Origin: an uncultured Thermoleophilia bacterium
GTDB lineage: Bacteria; Actinomycetota; Thermoleophilia; RBG-16-64-13
Direction: 5' to 3'
Length of the DNA stretch: 64,000 bases
Assembly (NCBI GenBank): GCA_963772095.1
Contig: CAVYVU010000019.1
Coordinates: forward strand, 12,239-76,238
The translations under genes and the position numbers were made by a program. Numbering within the stretch: position 1 is the stretch's first letter; every line of letters begins with the position of its first letter. The notes beneath the pieces are model-generated. The model had not been told where the DNA came from and ran no database searches. It saw only the letters and a program-made list of their open reading frames with translations. Positions 44,540 through 64,000 of the stretch are shown one piece after another.

Positions 44540-47500
44540 GTGAATCCCAAGCCCGCTGCACGAAAGCGCTTCACCGGGCCGGCCGCTGCCGCGGAACCAC
44601 CGGACCCGGCCGTCTTTCCGCGTCGTCGGTATCGGTGCCTCAGCCGGCGGCCTGGAAGCATTCACCGAGCTCCTGCGCGGCGTCCCGTCGAACACGGGGA
44701 TGGCATTCGTATTTGTGCAGCACCTCGACCCCACTCACAGGAGCGCCCTTACCGAGCTGCTCGCCCGGGGGACGACTATGCCGGTGGTCGAGGCGGGTGA
44801 CGGCCAAATGATAGTTCCCAATTTCGTCTACGTGATACCGGCTGGTAAGGATATGACCATGGTGCGCGGCATGCTTAAGCTGGCTCCGCGGCCCTCCTCC
44901 GGTCCCCATCTTCCCATCAACTTGTTCCTTGATTCTCTCGCTCGCGATCGCAAGACCGAGGCCATCGCCGTCATCCTTTCCGGTACGGCCGCCGACGGAG
45001 CCGAGGGGGTGCAGGCGGTAAAGATTGCAGGTGGCATGACTCTCGTGCAGGAGCCGGCTACCGCCAAGTATCCCAGCATGCCCGACAGCGCCATCGCTAC
45101 CGGGGCGGTGGACTTCGTGCTGCCCATTGCGCTCCTAGCAAGACAACTGGTGGCAATCGCCCAGCACTCGGGACCGCAGCACATCGGGCGACCCGTCACT
45201 GGGGAGGAGGCTTCCCTCGTCGTCCTCCCGGATGATCCCGACGTAGCTGAGGTGCTGGCCCTCGTCCGTGCCGCAACGTCGGCCGATTTCACCCACTATA
45301 AGCAGAGCACCGTGTTGCGCCGGATCACCCGCCGCCTGATGCTGCGCGACGTGCCGGATCTCCGGCAGTACGCAGACCTCCTGCGCAAAGACCCCGCTGA
45401 GCTCGAAGCCCTCTACCAGGACCTCCTTATCAGGGTGACCAGTTTCTTCAGGCAACCCCAGGTCTTCGAGGCACTTACAGAGAGGTTCTTCCACCAGCTC
45501 AAGGGCACAAGAGCGGGCGAGCAGGTGAGGTTCTGGGTCCCGGGATGCGCGACCGGCGAAGAGGCGTACTCCCTAGCGATCGCGTGGGCTGAGTATGCTG
45601 GCGGGACCCGGCTTGACAGGACGTCGCTCCAGATCTTCGCCAGCGACATAAACCAGAAGGTGATCGACAAGGCAAGGTCGGGGGTGTATCCCGCGAGCAT
45701 CGTTTCAGACGTCTCTCCCGAGCGGCTCGCGCGGTTCTTCACCCCGGTCGAGAACGGGTATCAGATAGTCAAGGACATCCGGGACACCTGCGTGTTCGCC
45801 AAGCACGATCTGACTCGAGATCCTCCGTTTTCCAAGCTCGACCTCATAAGTGTCAGGAATGTCCTCATCTATCTGGGCCCGCTTCTTCAGCAGAGGGTCA
45901 TGCATCTTCTGCACTTCGCGCTTGTGCCCGGGGGGCTTCTTCTTCTCGGGGAGTCCGAATCAATAGGCCGCTATCCCGATCTCTTCTCTCTCGTTGACAA
46001 GAAAGCCCGGCTCTACACGCGCAGGAACGGCCTCGCCGCCCTGGCGCCCAATGTCCCCACGCCTATTACCCGAGGCGAAGCCACGCCAATACCCAGCGCC
46101 CCATCCAAAGAGTTCGACCCCTCCGAAGAGGCGGACCGGATCGTCCTTGAGAAATACGCTCCGGTAGGGGTGATCGTCGACGCGAACCTGAATGTGCGCC
46201 AGTTCCGCGGTCGCACTGGTGCCTATCTTGAGCTGGGGCCGGGACGGGTGACCTCCGACCTTCTTCGCCTCGCGCGCCAGGGGCTCTCGAGCGAAATTGC
46301 GCGAGCTCTTCGCGAAGCGACAAAGGCCCAGATGCCCCTTCGCCGTGAAAACATACGCATCCTTCGGAACGACCAAGCGGTTGTCGTCGGTTTCGATGTC
46401 GTTCCCCTCAAGTCCGCGAGCGAAGAAGCCTTGTTCCTTGTCCTCTTTCACGACATGCCTTCGGCCGGCGAAGAAGAGTCGGGCCTGGAACTCACTCGTC
46501 CCCCGGACACCCCCGACGACGCCACCCGTATGGCAGACCTCGAGCGAGACCTAAGCGACTTGAGGGAATATGCTCGCGCCGTCCTTGAGGACAAAGAATC
46601 GGCAAATGAAGAGCTTCGCTCGGCCAACGAGGAGCTTCAATCGGGCAACGAGGAGCTGCAAAGCCTCAACGAAGAGTTGGAAACGGCCTCCGAAGAGGTG
46701 CAGTCGGCCAACGAGGAACTGCGGACGCTAAATGAAGAGCTGCACTCCCTGAACGACCAGTTCGCCAGGGTCAATGATGAGCTGCGGGACGGGAACGCCA
46801 GGCTGCAAGAACTGAACGCCGCTCTCGAGAGCCGTGAGTTGGATCTCAAGAATGCCCGAGACTACGCTCGGACGGTCATCGACACCGTGAGAGAACCCCT
46901 CGTGGTGCTGGGCCCTGACCTTCGCGTGGTCTCGGCTAACCCTTCTTTCCACGCCACGTTTGATACAAGCGCTGCAGAAACCTTGGGGCAGCCGTTCTTC
47001 GAGCTCGAGGCTGGGCAGTGGGACGGCCCGGAGCTTCGAGAAGCCATACAGCGCGCTTCAGCCGAAGGTGCGGACTTTCAGGATCTCATTGTTGAGCGGG
47101 ACTTTGCCCGGCTCGGCCGGCGCACCATGCTTCTTTCCGGTCGCTCCATTCACACGGGAAAGCCGGGAGTCGCGAACCTCCTTTTGGCCGTCGAGAACAT
47201 CACCGAGCGCGCACGGGAGGAGGCCTCCCTTCGGCTCACCCAGCTTTCGGTGGACCGGTCGGCAGACCTGGTCCACTGGGTCGCCCCCGACGGCCGGGTG
47301 CTCTACGCCAGCGATTCTTCCTGTCAGCGCCTTGGATACTCCCACCAGGAGATACTCGCCGCGACCGTTTTTGACCTTGATTCCACCATGACGCCCGAAA
47401 TATGGCCGAAACACCGGCAAGAACTGAAAAGCCGGGGCTCCATGACCTTTGAGTCTGTCCACCGCACAAAGCAGGGCGAGTTCTTCCCGGTGGAAGTAAG

Positions 47501-48734
47501 CGTCAGCCACATGGAATCGGGCGGTGAGGAGTACATCGTCGCCTTTGCCCGCGACATCACCGAGCGCAAGCGGACAGAGGAGGCGCTCAGAGAGAGCGAG
47601 GAGCGTTATCGGTCGCTGTTTGAACACATGCTGGAGGGGTTCGCCTACTGCCAGATGCTCTACGGCGACGATGGTCGTCCCTTGGACTGGATCTATCTCG
47701 CTGTGAACCGCGCCTTCGGGGAGTTGACCGGATTAGAAGACGTGGTCGGAAAGAAAGTCACCGAGATCTTCCCAGGGATAAGAGAGGAGTCTCCCGAACT
47801 GTTCGACATCTACGCCCGAGTGGCGTGCGGGGGCAAGTCGGAGAGATTCGAGATTGACTTCACTCCGATATCCAAGTGGCTCGATGTCGGGGTGTCCAGC
47901 CCTCGCGAAGGCTACTTTGTCGCAGTCTTTCAAGATGTCACCGAGCGTAAGCGCGCCGAAGAGGAACAAAGGGGTATTGCTCAGCGCCTCCAAGAGGCGC
48001 TCCTTGACATCCCCCAGCAGGCAAGTGGGGTCGAGTTCGGCCATCTCTATCGCTCCGCTACCCAAGGGGCGTCGGTGGGCGGCGACTTCCACGACGTGTT
48101 TCGGGTGAAGGCCGGGCGCCTCGCGGTCCTCATTGGGGACGTCTCCGGCCACGGGGTGGAGGCGGCGAGGATCGCGACCCTCGTCAAAGACGTGGTGCAC
48201 GCCTTTGCTCACCAGTTCCGCCGCCCGAGCGTGATCCTCGGCAAGACGAACGAGCTTCTGATAGAGAAACAAACCCCAGGCTTCGTCACTCTCTTTTTGG
48301 GCATCCTCGACCCCGAGGACGGGACTCTCACTTACGCCTCGGCCGGGCACCCCAACGCCCTATTGCGCGAGGGGAGTGGCGAGGTCGAGCTTCTGGAGGC
48401 CGGTTCGCTCCCCTTGGGCATTTTCGACAAGCAGTCGTGGAAAGAGAGCCGGATCCAACTCGAGGACCAGGACCTACTTTTCCTCTATACGGACGGAGTC
48501 ATCGAAGCTCGCCGGGATGGCGAGTTCTTCGGTCAAGAGGGTCTGATGGAAGTTCTCAAGCGTTGGTCCGAACGGTCTCCTGAGCTTCTCCCGGAGGCTG
48601 TGCTTGCCGAGGTACTCGCCTTTTCCGGAGGAGTGCTCACTGACGATGTGGCTATGCTTGCCCTCCGCCTCACGGAAGACGTCGGTCGGAGGCGAGCCAA
48701 GAAGGAAGGGCGACAAGAGAAACCGCCGGGCTGA
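44540..48734 (+). CDS. CheB-CheR-PAS-PP2C(SpoIIE) fusion protein (frameshift at ~44620)
   Basis: GASAGG, QHLDP and SGTAADG (CheB); VTSFFR and GCATGEEAYS (CheR); NEEL coiled coil; PAS domains; GGDFHD, GDVSGHG, YTDG and DDVAML (PP2C). Confidence 0.92.
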
Positions 48735-50193: not shown

Positions 50194-50640
50194 TCAGGTG
50201 ACCAATTTCTCCCCGAAGGCCCTGCCGTAGTCGTGGCACGCGCGCATGCCTTCTTGCGTGCCCACATTGGCTTCCAGAAGCTTGAAGGAGCCGAGGTCGA
50301 ATGGCCGCATCTTATACACGTACTCCATGGTGTCGAAAATCATAGCCGGTGCGTCACCGCTATGGGTATACGCGCCGAAGGCACCCGCCAGTTTTCCCTC
50401 AAGATCGGCCCCCCGTGCCAAGAAGAGCAGACTCTTCATGGGCCCCGCTATGTCCCTGTGGAACGTGGGCGAACCGAAGATGTAGCCGTCATAGCCGCAC
50501 ATGTCATCGACTGTCGCGATATCGGATGCCTTCTTGGTGATTGCTTCCTGCTCGGCGAAGCGCACGCCTTCAGCAATGTACTCGGCCATCTTTTGGGTTC
50601 TTCCGGTCAATGAAAAGTAGACGATAAGGACTTTGCCCAT
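50194..50640 (-). CDS. Flavodoxin-domain protein
   Basis: YFSLTGRTQKMA, FGSPTF, GAFGAYTHSG. Confidence 0.9.
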   Translation of the reverse strand: MGKVLIVYFSLTGRTQKMAEYIAEGVRFAEQEAITKKASDIATVDDMCGYDGYIFGSPTFHRDIAGPMKSLLFLARGADLEGKLAGAFGAYTHSGDAPAMIFDTMEYVYKMRPFDLGSFKLLEANVGTQEGMRACHDYGRAFGEKLVT

Positions 50641-50784
50641 TTCGTTCCTCCCAGAAGATTGCACGTGTTTGACCGATTGCCGGCCTGATGAGTAACCTCA
50701 GGCCTCCATCCGAGCTTGGCGACGAGAGAATTGGAGGTCATGGGGGCTTGTTGTCGTGCGACTCGTCCCCAGACCGTTCCGCGA

Positions 50785-51476: not shown

Positions 51477-51663
51477 CTGAGTAGCGAGCACCTCCGTCGC
51501 ATCGTCGAGGAGAAGCAGATCAAGATCAAGTTCATCGCCCTCTGGTCTGCGGACGTCCCCGGCTTTCTTAAGAGCTTCGCCATCACCCCGGGCGGGCTTG
51601 AAGGGGCTTTTGAGGAAAGGCAAGGGCTTTGATGGTTGCCCCATCGATGGTCTGCGATTCTAA
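51477..51663 (+). pseudogene. glnA: 5' relic of type I glutamine synthetase
   Basis: Manual translation: EHLRRIVEEKQIKIKFIALWSADVPGFLKSFAITPGGLEGAFEE/GKGFDGCPIDGL, resembling the GS I N-terminus (KFIRLWFTD..G.LKSFAI...GFDGSSI.G). AGGAG RBS precedes CTG. Confidence 0.75.
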
Positions 51664-52239
51664 TCAGCCGACCGGCTCCGCCGCCGTCGCCGCTGTCGTC
51701 ACGGTCTTCGTGTGTGCCAATTGCGCCCGTCCGGGCCAGACGCCAGACTCCGCCGGCCGGTCGCGTCCGAACGTCCCGAGCTTCGACTGGCCCTTCCCGG
51801 TGCGGGAAGTGCTGGTGCCTTGCACGGGGCGGATCCAGCCGGAGCACGTTCTCAAGGCGTTCGAGTCCGGCGCCGACGTGGTCTGCGCGGTCGCTTGCGA
51901 GGAGGACAACTGCCACTACCTGGAAGGCAGCGAGCGCTGCGCTCGCCGGGTGGACTATCTCCGTACCATCCTCGATGAGATCGGGCTGGGAGGCGAGCGT
52001 CTGATGCTCTTCCACCTGCCCGGCACGCGCGGCCGAAGACACGGCGCTGGGCGCCGGGAGACGCCGCGCCGGTCTGCGCGGCCGACGCCGCGGACGCCCC
52101 GGCTCGCCGCCATCCGCGATGCAGTGTTGCAGGCCCTGGACGGCCTGGCCCCCAACCCCCTTGACACCGGCCCGTGGCCGAAGCGGCCGAGGAGCCCTAC
52201 CAAGAAGTGGATACCAGCGATGACGCCAATGAAGACTAA
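51632..52239 (+). CDS. mvhD: MvhD-type [2Fe-2S] hydrogenase iron-sulfur subunit (frameshifts)
   Basis: VFVCANC, VPCTGRI, AFESGAD, ACEEDNCHYLEG; reconstructed acidic tail ends at TAA 52239, overlapping the next ATG. Confidence 0.85.
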
Positions 52240-53085
52240 GTTCGGCCAGGCACTGACCTCCGGCCGGCTGGTTCTCACCGCCGAGTGCCTGCCGCCGCGC
52301 AGTGGCGGCGCGGAGGCCGTCAAGAGGCTCTCGACCGCGCTGCCGCCCGGCCTGGACGCGGTGGTGGTGGCGGACAACCCCGACGAGATCCACGGTTCGG
52401 CCCTGGCGTGTGCCGCCCTCCTGGCCCGCGAAGGCCGCGACGCGGTGCTGTCCATGTCGACCCGCGACCGCAACCGCATCGCCCTGGAGAGCGACGCCTT
52501 GGGAGCCGCGGCCCTGGGTATCGGCGCCATCCTCTGCCTGAGCGGCAACCACCAGTCTCTGGGGGTTTGTCCCGCAGGCGGCCGGTGCCAACGACATCGA
52601 CTCCATCCAGCTCACCCAGGCCCTGAAGGGTCTGGACCTTCCGGAGATGCTGGTCGGGGCGGTGGCCCATCCCTACCAGCAGCCTCTGGAGCTGAACCTG
52701 CTCCGGCTCAAGAAGAAGATCGCGGCCGGGGCGGACTTCCTGCTCACGCGAGCCGGTCTTCGACCTGGCCGGGTTCACTCTGTGGATGGACGCGGTTCGA
52801 GCAGCCGGGCTGGACAAGCGGACTGCGATCATCGCCAGCGTGCTGCCCTTGACCAGCGTGGAGCAGGCCGAGTCCCTGCGGCAGCGGCAGACCTACGGAC
52901 CGCTGGATGAAGCCGTGATCGCCCGGTTGGGCAAGGCCTCCGACCCGGCCAAGGAGGGCCTGGCCATGGCAGCCGAGATGGCCGCCCAGCTCAAGACGGT
53001 CCCCGGCGTCCGTGGCATCCACATCCTCAGCGGCGGGTGCGAAGCGCTGGCCGGCGAAGTGATCGAAGCAGCGGGATTGGCGTAA
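52229..53085 (+). CDS. metF: Methylenetetrahydrofolate reductase-like flavoprotein (frameshifts)
   Basis: TAECLPP, TRDRNRIALESD, KKIAAGADFLLT, GVRGIHI. Confidence 0.8.
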
Positions 53086-53098
53086 GGCGAGATCGGCT

Positions 53099-54527
53099 AT
53101 GCCCGACCGCTACCACATCCACACCGTTCCGACGGCCCCGCGGTTCCACCGCGTGGGCAAGTTCGGCAACGTCGACTGGCGCGAGGACTGCTCCCGCTGC
53201 ACCAACTGCGTCAAGCTGCGCTGCCTCTACGACGTGTACCGGCACGAGGCGGCCTACAACCGCGACCCGCTGGCCTCGGTCGAGACGCTCAACGAATGCA
53301 AGGCCTGCCTCTCCTGCGTGCAGGGCTGCACCAAGGGCCTGCTGAGCGTCTCGGTCAACCCGGAGTTCCTGGACATGGGCGACGAGTACTGGACGCCCGA
53401 CATCCTGCTCACCACCTGGAACCAGTCCGACGCCGGCAGGATCCCCGTCTCCGGCGCCGGCTATCGCGGGCGATTCCACGGCCCCGGCTTCGACTCCATC
53501 TGGACGGACATGTCGGAGATCGTCCGCCCCACCCGCGACGGCATCCACGGGCGCGAGTACATCTCCACCTCGGTGGACATCGGCCCCAAGCCCATGCGCC
53601 TGCGGTTCGCGCCCGACGGCAAGCTGCTCACTCCGCCCTCCCATCTGCTGGAGATCCAGCTCCCGGCGATCCTGGACATGCCGGGCTGGCCGGTGGAGAG
53701 CGAACACCTGGCCGCTGCCCGCGCCGCGGCGGCCGAGGAACTCAACTCCCTGGCCGTGATGCCGGCGGCCGAAGCCTCCGAGCTGCCGCCCGAGCAACTG
53801 CCGTTCGTCGTGCCCGTGCGTCGGCAAGGACGAGATCGAGCGGCGCCGGGACGTCCTCGGAGCCGTGCGCATGGCGCAAGTGATGGACGGTCCGGATGCG
53901 GCGGACCTGGCCGGCCAGGCTGCAAGCCGCTCAACCCGCAGTTGATCGTCTCTGTCCGCATGGCGCTGCGCCCCGCGACCGCCGACCGCGTCGTCGAGCT
54001 GGGGCGGGCGGGCGTCAAGGTCTTCCACCTCTGCGCCGACCAGCACGGGCGCGAGCGCCTGGAGGACGGGCGGCCCGGCCGGCACATCAAGGACGCCCTC
54101 CGCGAGGTCCACGGGCGACTGGTCAAGGAGGGGCTGCGCGACGAGGTCACGCTTGATCGTCTCCGGCGGCATCGCCCTGGCCGAGCACATGGCCAAGGCG
54201 ATCATCTGCGGGGCCGACCTGGTGGCCGTGGACACGCCGCTCCTGGTGGCTCTGGGCTGCCGCGTCTGCCGCGACGGCCGCCAGTGCGACGCCGGAAACG
54301 CCTGCCCGGCCGAGATCGGCTCCGTCGACTCCGCCTACGCCGCCCAGCGCATGGTCAATCTCATGGGCGCGTGGCACAGCCAGCTGATCGAGGTGCTGGG
54401 CGCCATGGGCATCCGCGAAGTCCGCCGCCTGCGCGGCGAAGTGGGACGAGCCATCTTCATGGAAGACATCGAGAAGGAGGCATTCGGCGATCTGGCTCGC
54501 GTGTCTCAGGCTGAGGTGCGCGCATGA
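53099..54527 (+). CDS. 4Fe-4S plus divergent glutamate synthase FMN-barrel-like protein (frameshifts)
   Basis: CSRCTNC and CKACLSCVQGC; GPGFDSIWTD; SGGIALAEHMAKAIICGAD; terminal Cys cluster. Confidence 0.8.
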
Positions 54528-56211
54528 CGACCGACGCTGCCACTATTCCGGTCGAAGTTCCGGTTGAGCGAGCTGCCGCCGTTCCGGTCGAGGTCCGGGT
54601 GGAGCCGGCGGAGGCATCGGCTGCCCGTTTGGGCAACAGCGACTGGCCGCACGAGCACGTCGCGCGGGAGATCCGCCCGGCGCCCGACCGCTACCGCAAC
54701 GTCTTGGGCAAGTACAAGATCGACCGCCTGGCCCGCTGCGTCTCCTGCGGCCGGTGCGTCGAGGTCTGCCAGTACGGCGTGCACGTCAAGCCCGAGGGCT
54801 ACGCGTTCACGCTGCGGCCGCAGGACCATCTGTGCATCGGCCCGGAGTGCGCCGAGACGGACCAGTCCTGCGTCGCCCAGTGCCCGCAGAAGGCGCTCAC
54901 GATGCGGCGCAACCCCAGCGCCGACTGCATGGGCGATCCGCGCTGGTCGAGCGACCTGATCCTCTCCACCTGGCATCAGGCCGCCACCGGGCACGCCGCG
55001 CCGCCGCATCTCGAAGCACCGGCACGGCGCCTCGGGCGGCGGGTTCGACCGGCTCCGCTTCAAGTTCGAAGCCGCGAAGTCCCGAGCGGCGGCGGCCAAG
55101 GCGGCTCAGTTCGGGGAACCGGCTCCGGTTGCCGCGGCCCAGTCGCCGCCGCCGACATCGACACGAGCCTGGACCTGAACCAGCGCGGCGACGGCCGGCC
55201 GCAGGTGCACATCGACATTCCCGTGTACGGCGGCGGGATGAGCTTCGGCTCGGTGAGCATCCACACCATCCTGGCCAAGGCCCGCGCGGCCGCGGCCTGG
55301 AACAGCTTCACCTGCACCGGCGAGGGCGGCTATCACGACCGCCTGCAGGCCCTACGACGACCACGTGATCACGCAGGTGGCCACGGGCCTCTTCGGCGTG
55401 CGCGAGGAGACCATCCAGCGCGTGCGGATCGTGGAGTTCAAGTACGCGCAGGGCGCCAAGCCGGGCCTGGGCGGGCACCTGCTGGGCGACAAGAACACTC
55501 CGCCGGTGGCCCGCATGCGCGAGGCCGTGGCCGGCAACGCTCTGTTCAGCCCGTTCCCCTTCCACAGCGTCTACAGCGTCGAGGACCACAAGAAGCACCT
55601 CGACTGGATCAAGGAAGTGAACCCCGACTGCCTGGTGAGCGTGAAGGTCTCGACGCCCACCGACGTGGACATGGTGGCGGTCGGCAGCTACTACGCCGGG
55701 GCGCACATCATCCACCTGGACGGCAGCTACGGCGGCACCGGCGCGGCGCCCGACATCGCCAAGAAGAACATCGCCATGCCCATCGAGTACGCCATCCCCA
55801 AGGTGCACAAGTTCCTGGTGGCCGAGGGCATCCGCGACAAGATCACGCTGATCGCCTCCGGCGGCATCCGCACGGCCTACGACGCCTTGAAGGCCATCGC
55901 CCTGGGCGCCGACGGCGTGGTGATCGGCACGGCCGAGATGGTGGCCCTGGGCTGCGTGCGCTGCGCCTGCTGCGAGAGCGGCCGCGGCTGCCCGCGCGGC
56001 ATCGCCACCACCGACCCCGAACTGATGATGCAGATGAGCCTGGAGTGGGCCACACAGCGGCTGATCAACCTGCACAACGCCTGGCGCGAGCAGATGCTGG
56101 CCGTGCTCGCGCGCCTGGGGATGACGTCGATCCGCGAGCTGCGCGGCCGCAGCGACGTGCTGTGCTACCTCAGCGACGAGCCGGCCATGGCCGGAGGAGG
56201 TGTCCCCGTGA
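54524..56211 (+). CDS. 4Fe-4S plus FMN-binding glutamate synthase subunit (GltB2-type; frameshifts)
   Basis: CVSCGRCVEVC; MSFGS, TGEGG, QVATGLFG, EFKYAQGAKPGLGGHL, DGSYGGTGAAP, SGGIRT, CVRCACCESGRGCP. Confidence 0.9.
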
Positions 56212-58857
56212 GCGACTTCGCCGAACGCCTGCTGGCCAGCCGGTCGCAGGTCTACTCGGGTCCGGACCAGCCGGTCGGATCCGAAGCCGGCGGAGGAAGG
56301 CGGCTGCGGCGTCACCGGCTTTGCCTGCACCGTGCCGGTGAAAGGGCGAGTTCATCTACGAGCCCTCCATCCAGATGCAGAACCGCGGCAACGGCAAGGG
56401 CGGCGGCATCGCGGCGGCGGGCCTCGTCCCCGAGCAACTGGGCATCTCCGACGAGGTGCTCGAGAGCCACTACCTGCTCCAGATCGCCCTGCTCGATCCC
56501 GACTGTCACGCCGAGCTGGAGCGGCAGTTCATCCTGCCCAACTTCGACATCGCGCTGTCCACCCGGCAGCCGCACATCGACGACTACCGCGACATCCCCG
56601 GCCTGGAGGTCCGCCCGCCGGACGTGCACCGCTACGTGGTGCGCGCGAAGCCGGGCGTCCTGAAGGCCTTCGCCGAGACGGCGGGGCTGCAAGATCTCGC
56701 GCCGCGCGCGCTCGAGGACGAGTTCGTCTGGCGCAACTCCTACCAGCTCAACGACGCCTTCTACGCCTCGCTGGGCGAGAAGCGGGCCTTCGTGCTCTCG
56801 CATTCGCGGAACCTGCTGGTCTTCAAGATGGTGGGCTACGCCGAGCAGAACGTGGAGTACTACCAGCTCCAGGACTTCAAGGCCCACGTCTGGATCGCCC
56901 ACCAGCGCTATCCCACCAAGGGCCGCGTGTGGCACCCCGGCGGCGCGCACCCGTTCGTCGGCGTGAACGAGGCGCTGGTCCACAACGGCGACTTCGCCAA
57001 CTACCACTCGGTCTGCGAGTACCTGCGCCAGCGCAACATCCGGCAGCAGTTCCTCACCGACACCGAGGTGTCGGTGCAGCTCTTCGACCTGTGGGACCGC
57101 GTCTACCACTATCCGCTGGAGTACATCATCGAGGCGCTGGCCCCCACCACCGAGCTGGACTTCGACCAGTTGCCGCCCGAGAAGCAGGCTCATCTACCGG
57201 CAGATCCAGGCGACCCACATCCACGCGTCGCCGGACGGTCCGTGGTTCTTCATCATCGCCCGCAGCCAGGGCGACCGGTTCCAGCTGCTGGGCATCACCG
57301 ACACGGCCATGCTGCGGCCGCAGGTCTTCGCGCTCTCCGACAGCGGCGAGGTGCAGATCGGCCTGATCTGCTCGGAGAAGCAGGCCATCGACGCCACGCT
57401 GCGCAGCCTGGCCGAGGAGGATCCGCGCTTCTGCCCGGTGGCCGACAAGTACTGGAACGCCCGCGGCGGCTCCTCCACCGACGGCGGCGCCTTCATCTTC
57501 ACCGTGGCGCCGGGCAACAACGGCGACAGCGGACAGATGCGACTCTCCTGCACCGACAAGTTCGGCCGCGAGGTCAAGGTCGAGACGGGCACGGTCCGCT
57601 GCGACCTGCCGCGACGGCCGTGCGACGCGACGGTCCAGGACGCGTCGAACGACATCTGCCCCGCCGAGGCGGTGAGCTCGGACGACATCCAGGACAAGCT
57701 GCGCCGAGGCGAGGTCGACGCCCTCTTCGCGGAGGTGCAGGACATCGCCGTCCTGGCCGGCCGGCCAGCTGCGGCGGTTCTGCCAGACGCGTGCTCGCGG
57801 GCGCGGACAACGCCAAGTCGCGCGCCACGGCCATCGAGCTGCTCACGAAGCTTCACGACCGGCGCTTCCCGACCGGCGACAAGCGCCGCGCAACCGTCGT
57901 CCAGGTGCTCGAGGAGACGCTCGACCAGCTCTTCGACACCGCTCCGCTCTTCGGCGAGCCGCCACGCGGTTTCTGGCGGCGGATCACCTGGGACACGCGC
58001 GATCAGCCTGGCGGCCCCGCAGCCCGGCGAGGAGCTGCTTGTGCATCGACCGCCAGGGCTTCCCGCCCGAGGGCGACGACTGCGACGCGGTCCTGCTGCG
58101 CAAGGCCTACCAGGCGGGTTGGAAGCGGTTCATCGTCTATCGCCTGCGCGGGCAGCGCTTCCACGGAGCGGGCCTGGGCGCGGCCACCGACGGCGTGCGC
58201 ATCGACCTCTACGGCTCCAACGGCGACTACACCGCCAGCGGCATGGACGGCCTGGAGATGCACATCCACGGCAACGCCCAGGACCAGGTGGCCCAGATCG
58301 CCAAGCGCGGCAAGCTGGTGATCTACGGCGACGTGGGACAGACCTTCATGTACGGCGCCAAGGGCGGCGAGGTGTTCGTCCTGGGCAACGGCGCCGGCCG
58401 GCCGCTGATCAACGCCGTGGGACGGCCGCGCGTGGTCATCAACGGCACCTGCCTGGACTTCCTGGCGGAGTCGTTCATGGCCGGGGATCCGCTGACCGGC
58501 GGCGGCTTCGTCATCCTGAACGGCATCGAGTTCGACGGAAGCGGCCGCATCGTTCCCCAGGCGACGCCGTACCCGGGCAGCAACCTGTTCTCGCTGGCCA
58601 GCGGCGGCGCCATCTACATCCGCGACCCGCACCACAAGGTGGTCGAGCGCCAGCTCAACGGCGGGGTGTTCTCCCCCTTGGACGACAAGGACTGGCGGTT
58701 GATCCGCGGCTATCTGGAGGAGAACGAGCGGCTCTTCGGCATCCGGGTGGAGGACCTGCTGACGGTGGACGGCGAGCTCCGGGCCCCGCAGGACGTCTAC
58801 CGCAAGGTCAGCGCGGTCAAGCTGTCGGTGCTGGCCGGCTCGGAGGAGAAGAAATGA
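56208..58857 (+). CDS. Class II glutamine amidotransferase fused to a GXGXG domain (GltB1+GltB3; frameshifts)
   Basis: GGAGGAGG RBS; EEGGCGV (Ntn Cys), HQRYPT, GAHPF, HNGD, TDTEV, DGPW; C-terminal GQRFHG, GDVGQTFMYGAKGG, ASGGAIY. Confidence 0.88.
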
Positions 58858-59423
58858 CCCCGGTGACCGTAGAGATCGAAGAGATCGGCGGCAGCCTGGC
58901 CGGCGAGGTGAAGGCCTCGAGCGGCGCCTCGCCCATGAGCTGCTACCAGTGCACGAAGTGCTCCAGCGGCTGCCCCGTCGCCGGCCGCGGCGATCTCAAG
59001 CCGCACGAACTCGTCCGGCTGGTGCAGATGGACCAGCGCGAGGCGGTGCTCGGCAGCCGCTTCATCTGGGAGTGCACGTCGTGCCAGACCTGCGTCACCC
59101 GCTGTCCCGCAGAAGGTGGACATCGCCGCCATGAACGACGCGCTGCGGGCGCTCAGCCTGCGCGAGAGGAATGGCGGCCGCGGGCACGGCCGTTCCCGGT
59201 CTTCAACGAGACCTTCCTGAACAGCGTCCGCAAGCGCGGCCGCGTGCACGAGCTGGGCCTGATGGCGGCTTTCAAGCTGCGCACCAGGCGGCTCTTCGAG
59301 GACTTCGACAAGGCCCCCATGATGCTGAAGAAAGGCAAGCTGCCCCTGCTGGGGGCGCGGGTCGGCGGGCGGCGCGAGCGCGAGAAGCTGTTCCGCCGGG
59401 CAGCCCAGGGAGGCAAGCCGTGA
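58854..59423 (+). CDS. hdrC: Heterodisulfide reductase subunit C-like (frameshifts)
   Basis: CYQCTKCSSGCP, WECTSCQTCVTRCP, GRVHE. Confidence 0.9.
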   Translation: MTPVTVEIEEIGGSLAGEVKASSGASPMSCYQCTKCSSGCPVAGRGDLKPHELVRLVQMDQREAVLGSRFIWECTSCQTCVTRCPAEGGHRRHERRAAGAQPAREEWRPRARPFPVFNETFLNSVRKRGRVHELGLMAAFKLRTRRLFEDFDKAPMMLKKGKLPLLGARVGGRREREKLFRRAAQGGKP

Positions 59424-60303
59424 GGTACGCGTTCTTCCCCGGCTGCTCGCTGGACGGCACGGCCAAGGACTTCCATCGCTCGACGCTGGCGGTGGCGGCC
59501 AAGCTGGGGCTGGAGCTGCCCGAGCTGGAGGACTGGATCTGCTGCGGTTCCACCGCCGCCCACAGCAGCGACCCGCTGCTGGCCGACGCGCTGCCGGCGC
59601 AGAACCTGCGCGCCGCCCGCGGCCAGACGGTCGCGGTGGCCTGCGCCGCCTGCTACAGCCGTTTGAAGATGGCCAACCACCACATCGCCGGCGACGCCGC
59701 CGTGCGGGCCAAGGTCGCCCAGGTGGTCGGCGGCGACTACGACGGCCTGACGCCGGTCCGGCACCTGCTGGAGATCCTGGGCCGGGACATCGGCGCGCGG
59801 AGATCGCCGCGGCCATCCGCCGCCCGCTGACCGGGCTGAAGGTGGCCTGCTACTACGGCTGCCTGCTGTCGCGTCCGCCGGAGGTCACGCAGTTCGACGA
59901 CGCCGAGAACCCCACGCTGATGGACCAGCTCCTCGAGACCGCCGGGGCCACGCCCGTGGACTGGCCGCACAAGACCGAGTGCTGCGGGGCGAGCTTCTCC
60001 ATCACCGACTCGAGCATCGTCCTCGAGCTGACCGACCAGATCCTGTCGATGGCCCAGGCCGCCGGGGTGGACTGCATCGTCACCGCCTGCCCGCTCTGCC
60101 AGCTCAACCTGGACATGCGGCAGAAGGACATCGAGGCCAAGTACGGGCGCCGGTACAACCTGCCGGTCTTCTACTTCACGCAACTGCTGGGTCTGGCCAT
60201 GGGCTGCTCGGCGAGCGAGTTGTCGCTCGACAGCCTGGTCGTGGACCCGCAGGCGCTGCTGGAATCCAAAGGGCTTCGGCGGAACGCCGGCTCAGCCGGT
60301 TGA
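59420..60303 (+). CDS. hdrB: Heterodisulfide reductase subunit B-like (frameshift at ~59800)
   Basis: FPGC, DWICCG, CAACY, YYGCLL, TECCG, CPLCQLNLD. Confidence 0.92.
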
Positions 60304-60329
60304 GGCGCGAACAACGGCGAGGCACGACG

Positions 60330-63300
60330 ATGAGCGGAAACAACGGAGGCAACGGGAACGGACAACGACGGCAACGGCGCGGCAGCGCCGGCATGGCGAC
60401 CGAGCCGGTCGGCGCCGTGATGGTCTGCGGCGCCGGCATCACCGGCATCCAGGCCTCGCTGGACCTGGCCGAGAGCGGCTTCAAGGTCTACCTGGTGGAC
60501 TCCTCGCCGGCCATCGGCGGGCGGATGGCCCAGCTGGACAAGACCTTCCCCACCGGCGACTGCGCCATGTGCATCCTCTCGCCCAAGCTGGTGGAGTGCG
60601 CCCGCAACAAGAACATCGAGATCATCACGCTGGCCGACGTCCAGGGCATCTCCGGCGAGCCGGGCAACTTCAAGGTGAAGCTCCGCCAGAACCCGCGCTA
60701 CGTCGATCTGGAGAAGTGCAACGCCTGCGGCGACTGCATCGAGGCCTGCCCGGTCGACCTGCCCAACGAGTTCGACCGCCGGCTGGGCACCCGCAAGGCG
60801 ATCTTCCGCCCCTACCCGCAGGCCATCCCCAACGTCTTCGGCATCTCCAAGGCCGCCGGGCGCGCGCCCTGCAAGGCCTCCTGCCCCGCCGGCGTCAACG
60901 CCCAGGGCTACGTGGCTCTGATCGCCGCGGGCAAGTTCAAGGAGGCCTACGAGCTGGTCCGCGAGCGCTGCCCGCTCCCGGCCGCCTGCGGCCGCGTCTG
61001 CCAGCATCCCTGCGAGGACCACTGCAACCGCGGCGAGATCGACGAGGCCGTCTCGGTGCGCGATCTCAAGCGGTTCGTCGCCGACTACATCGAGTCGAAC
61101 CCCGACGAGTATCCGCCGGCCAAGCCCGCGGCCGCCAAGCTGGACGCCAAGGTGGCCGTCATCGGCGGCGGCCCGGCCGGCCTGACCGCGGCCTCCGACC
61201 TGGCCCTGCTGGGCTACGGCGTGACCCTGTTCGAGGCCCAGCCGCACCTGGGCGGCATGCTGCGCTACGGCATCCCGAGCTACCGCCTGCCCAAGGACGT
61301 CCTGGACAAGGAGATCCAGTACATCCTCGACCTGGGCGTCGAGGCCAAGACGAGCACGCCGCGTCGCCGACCCGAGGAGCCTGCTGGAGTCCGGCTTCAA
61401 AGCCGTGTTCGCGGCCCCGGGCGCCTGGATCAGCCGCAAGCTGGGCATCGCCGGCGAGGACGCCCCGGGCGTCTGGGCGGGTCTCGAGTTCCTGCGCCGG
61501 GTCAACAGCGGCGAGACGCCCGCGCTCGGCTCGAACGTGCTGGTCATCGGCGGCGGCGACGTGGCCATGGACGCCGCGCGCTGCGCCCGCCGGCTGCCCG
61601 GCGTGTCACTCGGTGCACCTGGCCTGTCTCGAGAGCCGCGCGGAGATGCCGGCCCACTCCTGGGAGGCCGCCGAGGCGCTCGAGGAAGGCGTCGTCTTCC
61701 ACAACAGCCTGGGGCCGACCCGGATCGAGACGAGCGGCGGCAAGGTGACCGGGCGTCTCCTTCCGCGCCTGCACCAGCGTGTTCGACGAGGAGGGGCGGT
61801 TCGATCCCGCAGTTCGACGACCCGAAGACCGACGATCCTCGCGGCCGACACGGTGATCGTGACCATCGGCCAGGGGATCGACGCGGCCGGACTGGGCGTG
61901 GCCACCGGCCCGGGCGGGCGGATCGTGGCCGACAAGGACACGCTCGCCACCAGCGTCCCGGGCCTGTTCGCCGGCGGCGACGCGGTGCTCGGGCCGGCCT
62001 CCATGGTCGACGCCATGGCCCAGGGCCACAAGGCCGCCGAGGCCATCGACGCCTACCTCCGCGGCGCCAAGCTGGCCCAGGCCCCGGCTTCCGCTCCGGC
62101 GGAGACGGCCAAGAACCCCAGGCCCGACGCCCCTCGGCAGGAGCGGGTGAAGATGCCGCAGGCCGACCCGGCCGGGCGCGTGGGCGGCTTCACCGAGATC
62201 GACCAGGGCTACAGCGCGGAGCAGGCCGTCGCCGAGGCCAAGCGTTGCCTGGCCTGCGGTCTGTGCAGCGAGTGCATGCAGTGCGTCAAGGCCTGCTCGG
62301 CCGGCGCGGTCTGCCACGACCAGCAGCCGACCGAGATCGAGATCGACGCCGGCAGCGTGATCCTCACCCCCGGCTTCGAGGAGTTCCAGGCGTCGCTGCG
62401 CGGCGAGTTCGGCCACGGGCGCTACGCCAACGTGCTCTCCAGCGTGCAGTTCGAGCGCATGCTCTCGGCCGCGGGCCCCACCGGCGGACACGTCCAGCGG
62501 CCCTCGGACGGCGGCGAGGTGAAGACGCATCGCCTTCATCCAGTGCGTGGGCAGCCGCGACGCCGCCCGCGGCAACGGCTACTGCTCGTCCATCTGCTGC
62601 ATGAGCGCCACCAAGGAGGCCATGGTCGCCCTGGAGCACGCCCACGGCCAGAGACCTGGACGTCTCCATCTTCTGCATGGACGTGCGCGCCTTCGGCAAG
62701 GAGTTCGACAGCTACGTCAACCGCGCCCGCGACGAGCACGGCGTGAAGTACATCCGGGCCATCCCCTCGCGCGTGGTCGAGATGCCCGGCACGAAGAACC
62801 CGCGCGTCCGCTACTTCGACGAGGACGGGCGTCGAGCAGCAGCAGGAATTCGACCTGGTGGTGCTCAGCGTGGGGATGCAGGTTCCCGCCAGCGTCCGGG
62901 AGACGGCCGGACGGCTGGGGCTGGATCTCAACGAGTTCGGCTTCGCCCAGACCGAGCGGCTGGCGCCGCTGGCGACCTCCAAGCCCGGCCTCTACGTGGC
63001 CGGAGCGTTCCAGGAGCCCAAGGACATCCCCGAGTCGGTGGCCCAGGCCTCGGCGGCGGCGGCCTGCGCCATGGACCAGCTGGCCCCGGCGCGCGGCACG
63101 CTGATCCAGCGCCACGAGTACCCCTGGGAGCGCGACATCACCGACGAGGCGCCGCGGGTGGGCGTGTTCATCTGCCACTGCGGCCAGAACATCGCCTCGG
63201 TCATCGACGTGGAGCAGGTGGCCGAGAAGGCGGCCACGCATGCCCAACGTCTGCCACGCCGAAGCCAGCCTCTACACCTGCTCCGACACCAACCAGCAGC

Positions 63301-64000
63301 ACATCAAGGACATGATCAAGAAGCACCGGCTCAACCGGCTGGTGGTGGCCTCCTGCTCGCCGCGGACGCACGAGATCCTCTTCCAGGAGACGCTGCGCGA
63401 GAGCGGGCTCAACCAGTACCTGTTCGCGATGACCAACATCCGCGACCAGGGCTCCTGGGTCCACAAGGACGACCCCGTCGGCGGCGACCGACAAGGCCGT
63501 CGACCTCATGGCCATGGCCGTGGCGCGGGCGCGGCATCTGAAGGCGCTGCAGACCGGGCAACTGCCGGTGACGGCCTCGGCGCTCATCCTGGGCGGCGGA
63601 CTGGCCGGCATGACCGCGGCGCTGGGCATCGCCGACCAGGGCTTCGAGGTGCACCTGGTCGAGAAGGAGCCGGCTCTGGGCGGCCTCCTGCGCCACATTC
63701 ACACCACGCTCGAGGGGGCCGACGTCGAGGCCTACCTGCGCCAACTGGTGGACAAGGTCCAGGCCCACCCCGGTATCGACGTCTACCTGAACGCCACGCC
63801 CGCGAGCATCAGCGGACACGTGGGCAACTTCAAGAGCGTCCTCAACGTGGCGGGGCGCGAGCTGCCGATCAGCCACGGCGTGATCATCGTCGCCACGGGC
63901 GGCCAGGAGCGGCCCACCGAGCTGTACCTGCACGGCAAGAACCCGCACGTGACCACGCAGAGCAAGCTGGAGGCGGTGCTGGCCGGCGGCGATCTTCCGC
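60330..64000 (+). CDS. hdrA: Large HdrA-like flavoprotein (HdrL-type) with inserted GltD-like module and a second HdrA unit; 3' end outside window, many frameshifts
   Basis: GGRMAQLDKTFPTGDCAMC; APCKASCP...GRVCQHPCE; GGGPAG; GGGDVAMD; QCVGSRD; YCSSICC; GVFICHCG; SCSPRTHE. Confidence 0.9.

Follow-up and report, generated by a model that had tools for sequence, protein, structure and literature searches.

The stretch analysed here, referred to as the window, comprises 64,000 nucleotides from an uncultured Thermoleophilia bacterium (positions 12239-76238 of contig C19, CAVYVU010000019.1, in assembly G000, GCA_963772095.1). It contains the greater part of one tightly coupled ten-gene operon with the order mvhD1, metF-like, gltB-like1, gltB2, GATase-GXGXG (hereafter the fusion gene), hdrC, hdrB, hdrL, mvhD2 and metV, that is, the full Moorella-type MetFV-HdrABC-MvhD set together with three glutamate-synthase-type genes. 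These three genes keep company with mvhD, metF and metV in all but one of the fully flanked loci compared. Judged from the encoded proteins, the operon may specify an NADPH- and ferredoxin-linked, Hdr-type split glutamate synthase complex, and we put the chance of this at somewhat below even. The combination of Glt, Hdr/MvhD and MetFV genes is not yet described, allowing for a possible prior mention.

Layout of the operon and the encoded proteins

Pfam searches of the window open reading frames (ORFs) combined with tblastn revealed a single gene run on the forward strand between 51632 and 64000 (Table 1). All eight genes named in an earlier note on this DNA were recovered on this strand, near where the note had placed them, and the intact proteins of two related loci, L002 (Actinobacteria bacterium RBG_16_64_13, the closest named relative) and L004, mapped colinearly onto the window with 74-94% identity per piece. 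The tight coupling proposed in the note was borne out by the 13 nt separating the metF stop from the next ATG, that of gltB-like1, by ATGA stop/start overlaps at 54524 and 58854 and by a GTGA overlap at 59420. Terminator-like sites within the operon were not more frequent than expected by chance (4 versus 4.9 in shuffled sequences), and a scan for sigma-70 promoters gave nothing exceeding chance. On two points the earlier description had to be changed. The operon does not end at hdrA, as had been proposed, and continues for about 2 kb beyond the window end, to ~65992 in window coordinates, with mvhD2 followed by metV. The amidotransferase and GXGXG parts are both present on the + strand as described, and they form one fused gene, encoding about 865-880 amino acids (aa) in relatives.

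Table 1. Genes of the operon and other features, in window coordinates unless a contig or locus is named; the last column gives the frame breaks of the window copy
Feature	Position	Strand	Description	Frame breaks
mvhD1	51632..52175	+	divergent MvhD/FlpD-type [2Fe-2S] protein; first gene of the operon	3' part garbled; extra bases near 52027, 52062, 52097, 52170
metF-like	52220..53085	+	TIM barrel of the methylenetetrahydrofolate reductase (MTHFR) fold	split over three frames; extra bases near 52574, 52750
gltB-like1	53099..54527	+	Fe-S flavoprotein, paralogue of GltB2	near 53819-53933 and 54151
gltB2	54524..56200	+	ferredoxin-like N-terminal domain and glutamate synthase FMN domain	near 55014, 55143, 55345
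Fusion gene	56186..58857	+	fused class-II (Ntn) glutamine amidotransferase and GXGXG beta-helix	near 56193, 56284, 56350, 57187, 57748, 57789, 58005, 58041
hdrC	58854..59423	+	HdrC-like 2x[4Fe-4S] protein	three extra bases near 59105, 59166, 59198; frame restored after garbled stretch
hdrB	59420..60303	+	HdrB-like protein with two CCG domains	two extra bases near 59791
hdrL	60330..64000, on contig to ~64840	+	giant HdrA with GltD-like insert and second HdrA-like half	
mvhD2	~64894-65322		outside window	
metV	~65325-65992		outside window	
glnA / Glu_synthase-domain pair	C27:51467-54918	-	glnA open frame only 316 aa	
Signalling protein	44700-48734	+	CheB methylesterase, CheR methyltransferase, several PAS, SpoIIE-type phosphatase; intact, 1344 aa	
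Flavodoxin-like ORF	50194-50664	-	Flavodoxin_1, 28.8 bits	
DUF3786 protein	L057:3253-3864	-	118.8 bits	

The glutamate synthase signature is clearest in GltB2. Its Glu_synthase domain (PF01645, cut-off 20.4 bits) scored 260.3 bits in the window ORF 55365-56663 and 298.2 bits in L002, and in the window it is preceded by a Fer4 domain. The GltB2 orthologue of locus L006 aligned with residues 857-1172 of Azospirillum GltB at 183 bits. The motifs AQGAKPGxGG, SPxPxHxxYSxED, GGTGA, GG(I/L)(R/K)T and the Cys-rich LGC...CP of Azospirillum GltB are kept in GltB2, and the motif QVA(S/T)G(R/L)FGV shows a change of Arg to Leu. By its sequence GltB2 is a bona fide synthase domain.

The fusion gene of the window matched GATase_6 with 31.2 bits (cut-off 27) and GXGXG (PF01493, cut-off 32.5) with 52.7 bits, the latter scoring 46 bits in L002; the closest intact fusion protein, P0001 (876 aa), shares 95% identity with it in the GXGXG part. 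The protein also bears the N-terminal nucleophile (Ntn) amidotransferase motifs HQRYPTKG and HNGDFAN, and in all four homologues read a leader of about 31 residues precedes CGVTGF. In bacterial GltB, too, processing exposes Cys1, and removal of the leader would expose the catalytic Cys of the amidotransferase domain here.

GltB-like1 is a divergent paralogue of GltB2; the two are 31% identical in the Cys-rich N-terminal part and 40% identical in the last 146 residues (BLASTP). Both paralogues carry ferredoxin-like domains and a further Cys cluster; in GltB-like1 there are 12 invariant Cys, arranged as two ferredoxin-type motifs and a third group. A block of 40 residues, PVSGAGYRG...WTDMSEIVRPTRDGIHGREYI (residues 116-155 of L003:6898-8334), does not vary among 43 sequences of several phyla whose identity is otherwise 41-89%. 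The block matched no Pfam family, and it may be an interface or an active site of a new kind. The predicted structure of GltB-like1 (mean predicted local distance difference test, pLDDT, 74) has a generic FMN-type TIM-barrel core with flavocytochrome b2, IMPDH and mandelate or lactate oxidases as top Foldseek matches, and residues 117-153 of the block were modelled at a pLDDT below 50. A Protein Atlas search with the protein gave only clusters labelled "glutamate synthase family". Fold prediction for GltB-like1 together with the MetF-like protein and MvhD1 gave a median score of 0.54, compared with 0.42 when an unrelated protein replaced MetF, a difference that speaks neither for nor against binding. 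Together the Glt proteins are predicted to catalyse the formation of glutamate from glutamine and 2-oxoglutarate.

Two MvhD-type proteins are encoded. The divergent MvhD1 matched Pfam FlpD with 89.6 bits (residues 24-136 of ORF 51629-52852), and its orthologue heads the cluster in 61 of the 63 loci with at least 5 kb of upstream sequence. MvhD2 is canonical (FlpD, 163.9 bits in the L004 orthologue; 94% tblastn identity on the contig). HdrC matched Fer4_8, Fer4_17 and Fer4_9 in Pfam, with 74% tblastn identity over residues 1-188, and scored 62.9 bits with TIGR03290, below the cut-off of 160. HdrB gave CCG matches of 44.6 and 46.2 bits in two ORFs, 88-89% tblastn identity, and 179 bits with TIGR03288 (cut-off 345). 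HdrL, whose tblastn pieces reach 64839, matched Fer4_20, Pyr_redox_2 and NAD_binding_8, the first two lying within the HdrA matches; the NCBIfam model HdrA2 and the NAD(P)-binding model PRK12771 gave 928 bits (cut-off 1100) and 520 bits (cut-off 516). At residues 169-675 HdrL is interrupted by a GltD-like module, on which gltA/gltD models scored 203-289 bits, and mvhD2 follows downstream, as is characteristic of HdrL. The only GltD-like unit encoded is the one embedded in HdrL, with no free subunit. Its second Rossmann motif reads GGGDVA in the window. According to excerpts of PMC12054007, GXGXXG is tied to NAD and GXGXXA to NADP; since GGGDVA fits the latter rule, the sequence suggests that the module binds NADPH rather than NADH. 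From these matches the Hdr module appears to be of the same kind as, but not identical with, the methanogen HdrABC-MvhD enzyme.

The metF-like gene of the window gave MTHFR pieces of only 17.1 and 15.7 bits, under the cut-off of 24 bits, owing to frame breaks. Its intact L002 orthologue scored 59.3 bits (PF02219), and the L002 protein mapped onto the window in three tblastn pieces with 80-81% identity over residues 1-286. For metV, the L002 orthologue matched DUF5981 (PF12225, the C-terminal domain of MetV) with 123.6 bits (cut-off 23), and tblastn gave 85-89% identity on the contig. The L002 orthologues show the pairing of MetF with MetV that is typical of a MetFV-type methylene-tetrahydrofolate (THF) reductase. 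The MetF-like protein keeps the fold and the TQxxFD motif, and in the window and its clade SGN stands where MTHFRs have RGD, an exchange of Asp for Asn. The catalytic residues of MTHFR are taken here to be Glu28 and Asp120 of the E. coli enzyme. With the Asp column set by profile alignment to human MTHFR, a stretch in which that alignment is weak, the RGD-aligned Asp was replaced in 28 of 58 MetF-like sequences, and the canonical Glu/Asp pair was kept in 29 of the 58, the Desulfobacterales type being among those that keep it. Locus L003 served as the MetF reference, since metF of L002 contains a run of N at about 2930-2960.

Conservation and genomic context

The GXGXG part had 7376 matches among 8000 scored metagenomic database proteins, and the best 120 were mostly 860-900 aa long and 83-95% identical. 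Among contigs taken at one genome per species, a relative was encoded in 214 of 285 candidate stretches, which puts the number of species-level genomes with relatives at 214 or more. The loci studied were the best 80, picked by likeness to the fusion protein, so that all figures describe that family only; they cover Actinomycetota, Bryobacteraceae and other Acidobacteriota, Myxococcales/Anaeromyxobacteraceae, Desulfobacterales, Syntrophobacteraceae, Dehalococcoidia and Planctomycetota. Intact colinear operons were present in Actinomycetota, Acidobacteriota, Myxococcota, Desulfobacterota and Planctomycetota.

Gene content was compared in the 47 fully flanked loci, in which the sequence extends 5 kb or more upstream of the fusion gene and 7.5 kb or more beyond it. 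In 46 of them mvhD, metF, metV, gltB-like1 and gltB2 all lay beside the fusion gene, and hdrL belonged to the operon in 39, so that the co-conservation by which the earlier note had wished its proposal to be judged was indeed found. The layout of the window occurred in 30 loci (including nine with hdrB masked by an over-long hdrL reference and one with an extra upstream hdrL-like match). Eight loci had hdrL without hdrCB, one had metV and metF after hdrL, and six had the Desulfobacterales-type order mvhD-metV-metF-gltB-like1-gltB2-fusion gene with no adjacent hdr, one of these with an upstream hdrL-like piece. Only metV followed the fusion gene in one locus, and in the last (L060) the three glt genes stood alone. 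It is MetFV and MvhD, and not Hdr, that invariably accompany the Glt module.

The proteins are 74-90% identical between Actinomycetota, Acidobacteriota and Myxococcota. A reading of the cluster as a recent, horizontally transferred island was rejected, as cluster GC content tracks that of the host from 44% to 71% across loci; cluster GC exceeded flank GC in 59 of 61 loci. Within the window's own family the fusion gene was found in 5 of 24 other genomes, and in none of 16 genomes from other families of the class, indicating that the operon is an accessory trait. For rpoB of the assembly, the nearest named relatives were Thermoleophilia and Actinobacteria MAGs with 80-90% identity. None of the public sequencing runs contained more than 0.13 of the sampled words. 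In RNA library X17, 155 of 1482 contigs were at least 99% alike, a figure to which DNA carry-over possibly contributes.

Genes of nitrogen metabolism adjoin some of the 80 loci. An amt gene was found near the operon in 10, a P-II gene in 8 and a glnA-like (glutamine-synthetase-like) gene in 4, with one further weak match, and a Desulfobacteraceae locus has the order amt, P-II, glutamine-synthetase (GS)-like gene, operon. A sigma-54 activator gene occurred in 13 loci and a divergent LysR regulator in 8 Bryobacterales-type loci. The sigma-54 motif TGGCAY-N5-TTGC was found at 20 sites in 2.85 Mb of loci (both strands), 12 of them within 500 nt upstream of the operon start; in loci L019, L025-L027, L031, L041-L043, L052, L053 and L068 it lies 37-480 nt upstream of mvhD1. 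These Acidobacteriota loci have a sigma-54 activator gene 1-3 kb upstream, the N-terminal sensor of which is only weakly KaiC-like. Such neighbours (amt, P-II, glnA and sigma-54 elements) lend support to the glutamate synthase reading.

Other flanking genes differ between lineages. Those of Myxococcales, Bryobacteraceae and Desulfobacterales are unrelated radical SAM, TPR, PrmA, ABC, DctP and DUF3786 genes; one DUF3786 protein is encoded directly upstream of a Desulfobacterales-type operon (Table 1). The window operon is flanked by the CheB/CheR-PAS-SpoIIE signalling protein, the small flavodoxin-like ORF and a ZnuA/ABC transporter. The flavodoxin-like ORF, about 1 kb upstream of the operon on the opposite strand, could be a redox partner or unrelated, and it was not among the conserved flank families.

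Frame breaks in the window copy

The window copy is interrupted in most of its genes (Table 1). Compared with the DNA of L002 (86.3% identity over 14,458 columns), pairwise alignment gave 36 internal one-base extras, a single one-base loss and two two-base extras in the window, all remaining gaps being multiples of three or intergenic. In a five-way alignment of positions 54661-65993 the window had 28 unique one-base insertions and no unique one-base deletion, against 0-1 and 0-3, respectively, in the four references; only 8 of the 28 insertions adjoin an identical base. At nine of the sites (55345/6, 56195, 56350, 57189, 58005, 61608, 62525, 62653 and 63234) one letter is absent from short contigs that belong to relatives and stem from three DNA runs and one RNA library. 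The codon-position GC signal shifts frame every few hundred bases, with a third-position GC of 0.9-1.0 in each segment. Among five related genomes holding the fusion gene, three have it whole, in frames of 884-906 aa.

Similar damage was seen elsewhere in the assembly. In patch L084 (C28:135500-142000) the genes for seryl-tRNA synthetase (serS), NAPRTase and prephenate dehydratase (pheA) are split or fused across frames according to Pfam; rpoB is intact in the same assembly. Since nearly all breaks are single extra bases unique to this assembly and serS is broken in the same way elsewhere, the frame breaks are very probably assembly errors, and the actual operon is then intact. A truly decayed pseudo-operon is what some 36 frame breaks in 14 kb might suggest, and a genome of the same genus (G007) and another family member (G017) also gave split matches. 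We nevertheless regard decay as hardly credible, given that the changes are almost exclusively +1 insertions, that third-position GC stays high in every frame segment, that the pieces have kept their identity to intact orthologues, that an essential gene such as serS is broken by similar patches and that the contigs of relatives are free of the extra letters.

Dense frame-switch patches of GC-rich DNA lie at C28:126-161 kb, which includes L084, and at C10:70-98 kb, C16:336-364 kb and C1:112-133 kb. A codon-phase hidden Markov model flagged 996 of 1719 same-strand phase changes; being crude, prone to over-calling and stronger in GC-rich DNA, it was used for region picking only. The operon copies of L039, L009, L025, L030, L049 and L050 also gave fragmented tblastn matches in hdrL, metF or the gltB genes, and consensus errors in this GC-rich operon do not seem to be limited to a single assembly. 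In the assembly of the window, with its patches of single-base insertions, gene calls in GC-rich regions are not to be trusted.

Proposed function, alternatives and related systems

As a split glutamate synthase complex, the product of the operon would be a soluble Fe-S flavoprotein assembly with an archaeal-type glutamate synthase as its catalytic end. The Ntn amidotransferase domain, freed of its leader of about 31 residues, would hydrolyse glutamine at Cys1, and the ammonia would pass to the FMN site of GltB2, where 2-oxoglutarate would be aminated and reduced to glutamate. Electrons would arrive through Fe-S chains instead of from a free GltD, entering from NADPH at the GltD-like module within HdrL. 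HdrA-type flavins with MvhD and HdrCB would provide the layout of a flavin-based electron-bifurcating enzyme, in which the strongly exergonic glutamate synthase reaction could drive ferredoxin reduction, one electron pair going downhill and another uphill; alternatively, ferredoxin and NADPH together might feed glutamate synthesis. The acceptor couple of glutamate synthase lies about 0.2 V above NAD(P)H, and for this reason an HdrA flavin could bifurcate, with glutamate synthesis as the downhill and ferredoxin reduction as the uphill branch. The MetFV-like pair may be a second flavin/Fe-S arm with a methylene-/methyl-THF site, possibly a second high-potential site, or an electron-transfer adaptor where the catalytic Asp is lost, as in the window clade. 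That all ten gene products form a single soluble super-complex, a bifurcating glutamate synthase in which NADPH at HdrL serves both 2-oxoglutarate amination and ferredoxin and the MetFV arm reaches methylene-/methyl-THF, is a more demanding proposal that we consider doubtful.

Several observations weigh against a glutamate synthase complex of the Hdr type. Eight of the 47 loci have no adjacent Hdr genes, the NCBIfam matches of the Hdr and Glt parts all stay below equivalog cut-offs, and the GATase domain is remote from the solved amidotransferase domains of glutamate synthase (GltS), its best PDB match being GlmS with 20.6 bits. Nitrogen-gene neighbours occur in a minority of loci only, with none beside the window copy, and MetFV is an invariant partner though unneeded by a glutamate synthase model. 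A GltB of about 1500 aa is also present in 3 of 5 carrier genomes checked, and on contig C27 of the window genome (66% complete) a further Glu_synthase-domain gene (465 bits, 541-aa frame) lies some 1.4 kb from glnA, an arrangement that looks like a separate GS-GOGAT-type pair.

The operon might instead encode a Moorella-type complex centred on methylene-THF reductase, with the Glt module as its second redox partner through 2-oxoglutarate amination or glutamate oxidation. MetF, MetV and MvhD do stay with the Glt genes in 46 of 47 loci, more steadily than Hdr does; MetV has a DUF5981 match (123.6 bits); the Desulfobacterales-type loci lack nearby hdr genes, and their MetF keeps the Glu/Asp pair and reached 135.6 bits with Pfam MTHFR in a Desulfosarcinaceae genome; and the second acceptor of the Moorella complex is given as unknown in excerpts of PMC7325909 and PMC6085437. 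Against this stand the 28 of 58 sequences in which the RGD-aligned Asp is replaced, with Asn in the window clade, and the 29 of 58 in which the Glu/Asp pair is missing. Other MetF genes were also found in all five carrier genomes checked, at least one of them outscoring the cluster copy in four (the window genome has another on contig C13), and CdhC, a marker of carbon monoxide dehydrogenase/acetyl-CoA synthase, in only two of the five. Glutamate synthesis, moreover, is a biosynthetic flux that would be too small for a catabolic electron sink. Taken together this makes a reductase-centred complex unlikely. Since the genomes checked hold other GltB or Glu_synthase and MetF genes and CdhC was found in two of five, the operon is an additional system, which is neither the sole route to glutamate or methyl-THF nor tied to the Wood-Ljungdahl pathway.

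Equally unlikely, in our view, is a set of separate enzymes that merely share an operon, namely a ferredoxin- or NADPH-dependent split glutamate synthase, a MetFV reductase and an HdrL/HdrBC/MvhD module. The modular nature of the Hdr part, absent from 8 and without hdrCB in another 8 of the 47 loci, and the differing placement of metV and metF around the glt block from lineage to lineage would fit such a set. Against it stand the 46/47 co-occurrence across five or more phyla and the overlaps between stop and start codons. The only GltD-like unit is embedded in HdrL, and MvhD-family proteins are HdrA-bound adaptors according to excerpts of PMC2702500, yet one always heads the glt block. A further alternative is that the Glt-like proteins act on another substrate, either in an N-methylglutamate-synthase-like (MgsABC) reaction with methylamine or gamma-glutamylmethylamide that feeds the folate pool, a methylamine route of this type having been raised in the earlier note, or on some other pair of amide and 2-oxo acid; it was disfavoured and is very unlikely. 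MgsABC subunits are homologous to the same three GltB domains, a folate enzyme homologue lies within the operon, the invariant block of GltB-like1 matches no known family and GltB2 has the Arg to Leu change. The Mgs reaction, on the other hand, is redox-neutral, whereas in both GltB paralogues ferredoxin-like domains and a Cys cluster would take up electrons from outside. A GS/GmaS-like gene lay near the cluster in only 4 of 80 loci, in two of these beside amt or P-II, and no sarcosine-oxidase-like (mgd) family was present among the conserved flank families annotated, which comprise a subset of the flank ORFs. The neighbours are ammonium transporters and P-II instead of methylamine genes. The mgsABC-gmaS operon with adjacent mgdABCD described in excerpts of PMC6237917 resembles the present one in its three-part GltB-domain homologue and its link to C1/folate metabolism, and differs from it in gene context and in lacking the Fe-S domains and redox partners found here.

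Compared with split archaeal-type GltS and the NADPH-GltS of Azospirillum (PDB 1EA0, 2VDC, 6S6S), the predicted complex has the same FMN synthase domain and GXGXG beta-helix together with a probable Ntn amidotransferase, and the GltD-like NADPH module of the Azospirillum enzyme is also present, inside HdrL. Unlike these enzymes, it has the amidotransferase and GXGXG parts fused with the central domain missing, a divergent FMN/Fe-S paralogue (GltB-like1) that is always present, a GltD-like module inserted into a giant HdrA, and MvhD, MetF and MetV as constant neighbours. Among solved structures we found no archaeal-type GltS subunit. F420-linked glutamate synthases of archaea are mentioned in an excerpt of PMC9012536.

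The closest relative on the reductase side is the MetFV-HdrABC-MvhD methylene-THF reductase of Moorella thermoacetica (Mock et al. 2014, as cited in PMC7325909 and PMC6085437). Excerpts of these two papers describe metVF-mvhD-hdrABC clusters and the proposal that the enzyme bifurcates. The shared genes, in one operon, are those for MetF, MetV (DUF5981), MvhD, HdrA, HdrB and HdrC; as far as the excerpts describe the Moorella complex, the present operon differs in the three inserted glutamate-synthase-type genes, in having the giant HdrL as its HdrA, in its two mvhD genes, in the frequent replacement of the catalytic Asp of MetF and in carriers of which three of five checked gave no CdhC. The HdrL of Desulfobacterium autotrophicum HRM2, a fusion of Hdr and glutamate synthase followed by mvhD (excerpt of PMC2702500), and the rare type III HdrA with a GltD insert from methane-metabolising archaea (excerpt of PMC12054007) likewise join HdrA to an NAD(P)H domain like the glutamate synthase small subunit, with mvhD following. 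In the excerpts those loci adjoin dsr, fdh or hdrABC, not genes for the glutamate synthase large subunit. The GltD module is common to GltS, DPD and the bifurcating Nfn (excerpt of PMC8097209). As in NfnAB, where it is the bifurcation site, a GltD-like FAD/2x[4Fe-4S] module would hand NADPH electrons to unrelated partners; here it is embedded in HdrA-type halves, and its likely exergonic partner would be glutamate synthase, not NAD+.

A search of open full text, with subscription journals, figures and supplements outside its scope, found no paper joining glutamate synthase large-subunit genes with MetFV, MvhD and Hdr, and the exact phrase "electron-bifurcating glutamate synthase" had no match in the full-text literature. 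This agrees with the earlier note, to which no characterised complex of this combination was known.

When NAD(P)H drives glutamate synthase a large redox span is lost, and bifurcation could allow anaerobes close to the thermodynamic limit to recover that energy. No described bifurcating GOGAT came up in the searches, and the operon is a concrete, widespread and strongly conserved candidate for one. If the proposal is true, MetFV-Hdr-MvhD complexes would gain a concrete and testable candidate for their partner reaction, and bacteria of anoxic peat and wetland would obtain low-potential reducing power at the expense of ammonium assimilation. Carriers typically come from metagenomes of peat, fen, permafrost and wetland, habitats in which both nitrogen and energy are in short supply, and the operon may connect the assimilation of nitrogen with energy saving in bacteria of anoxic soil.

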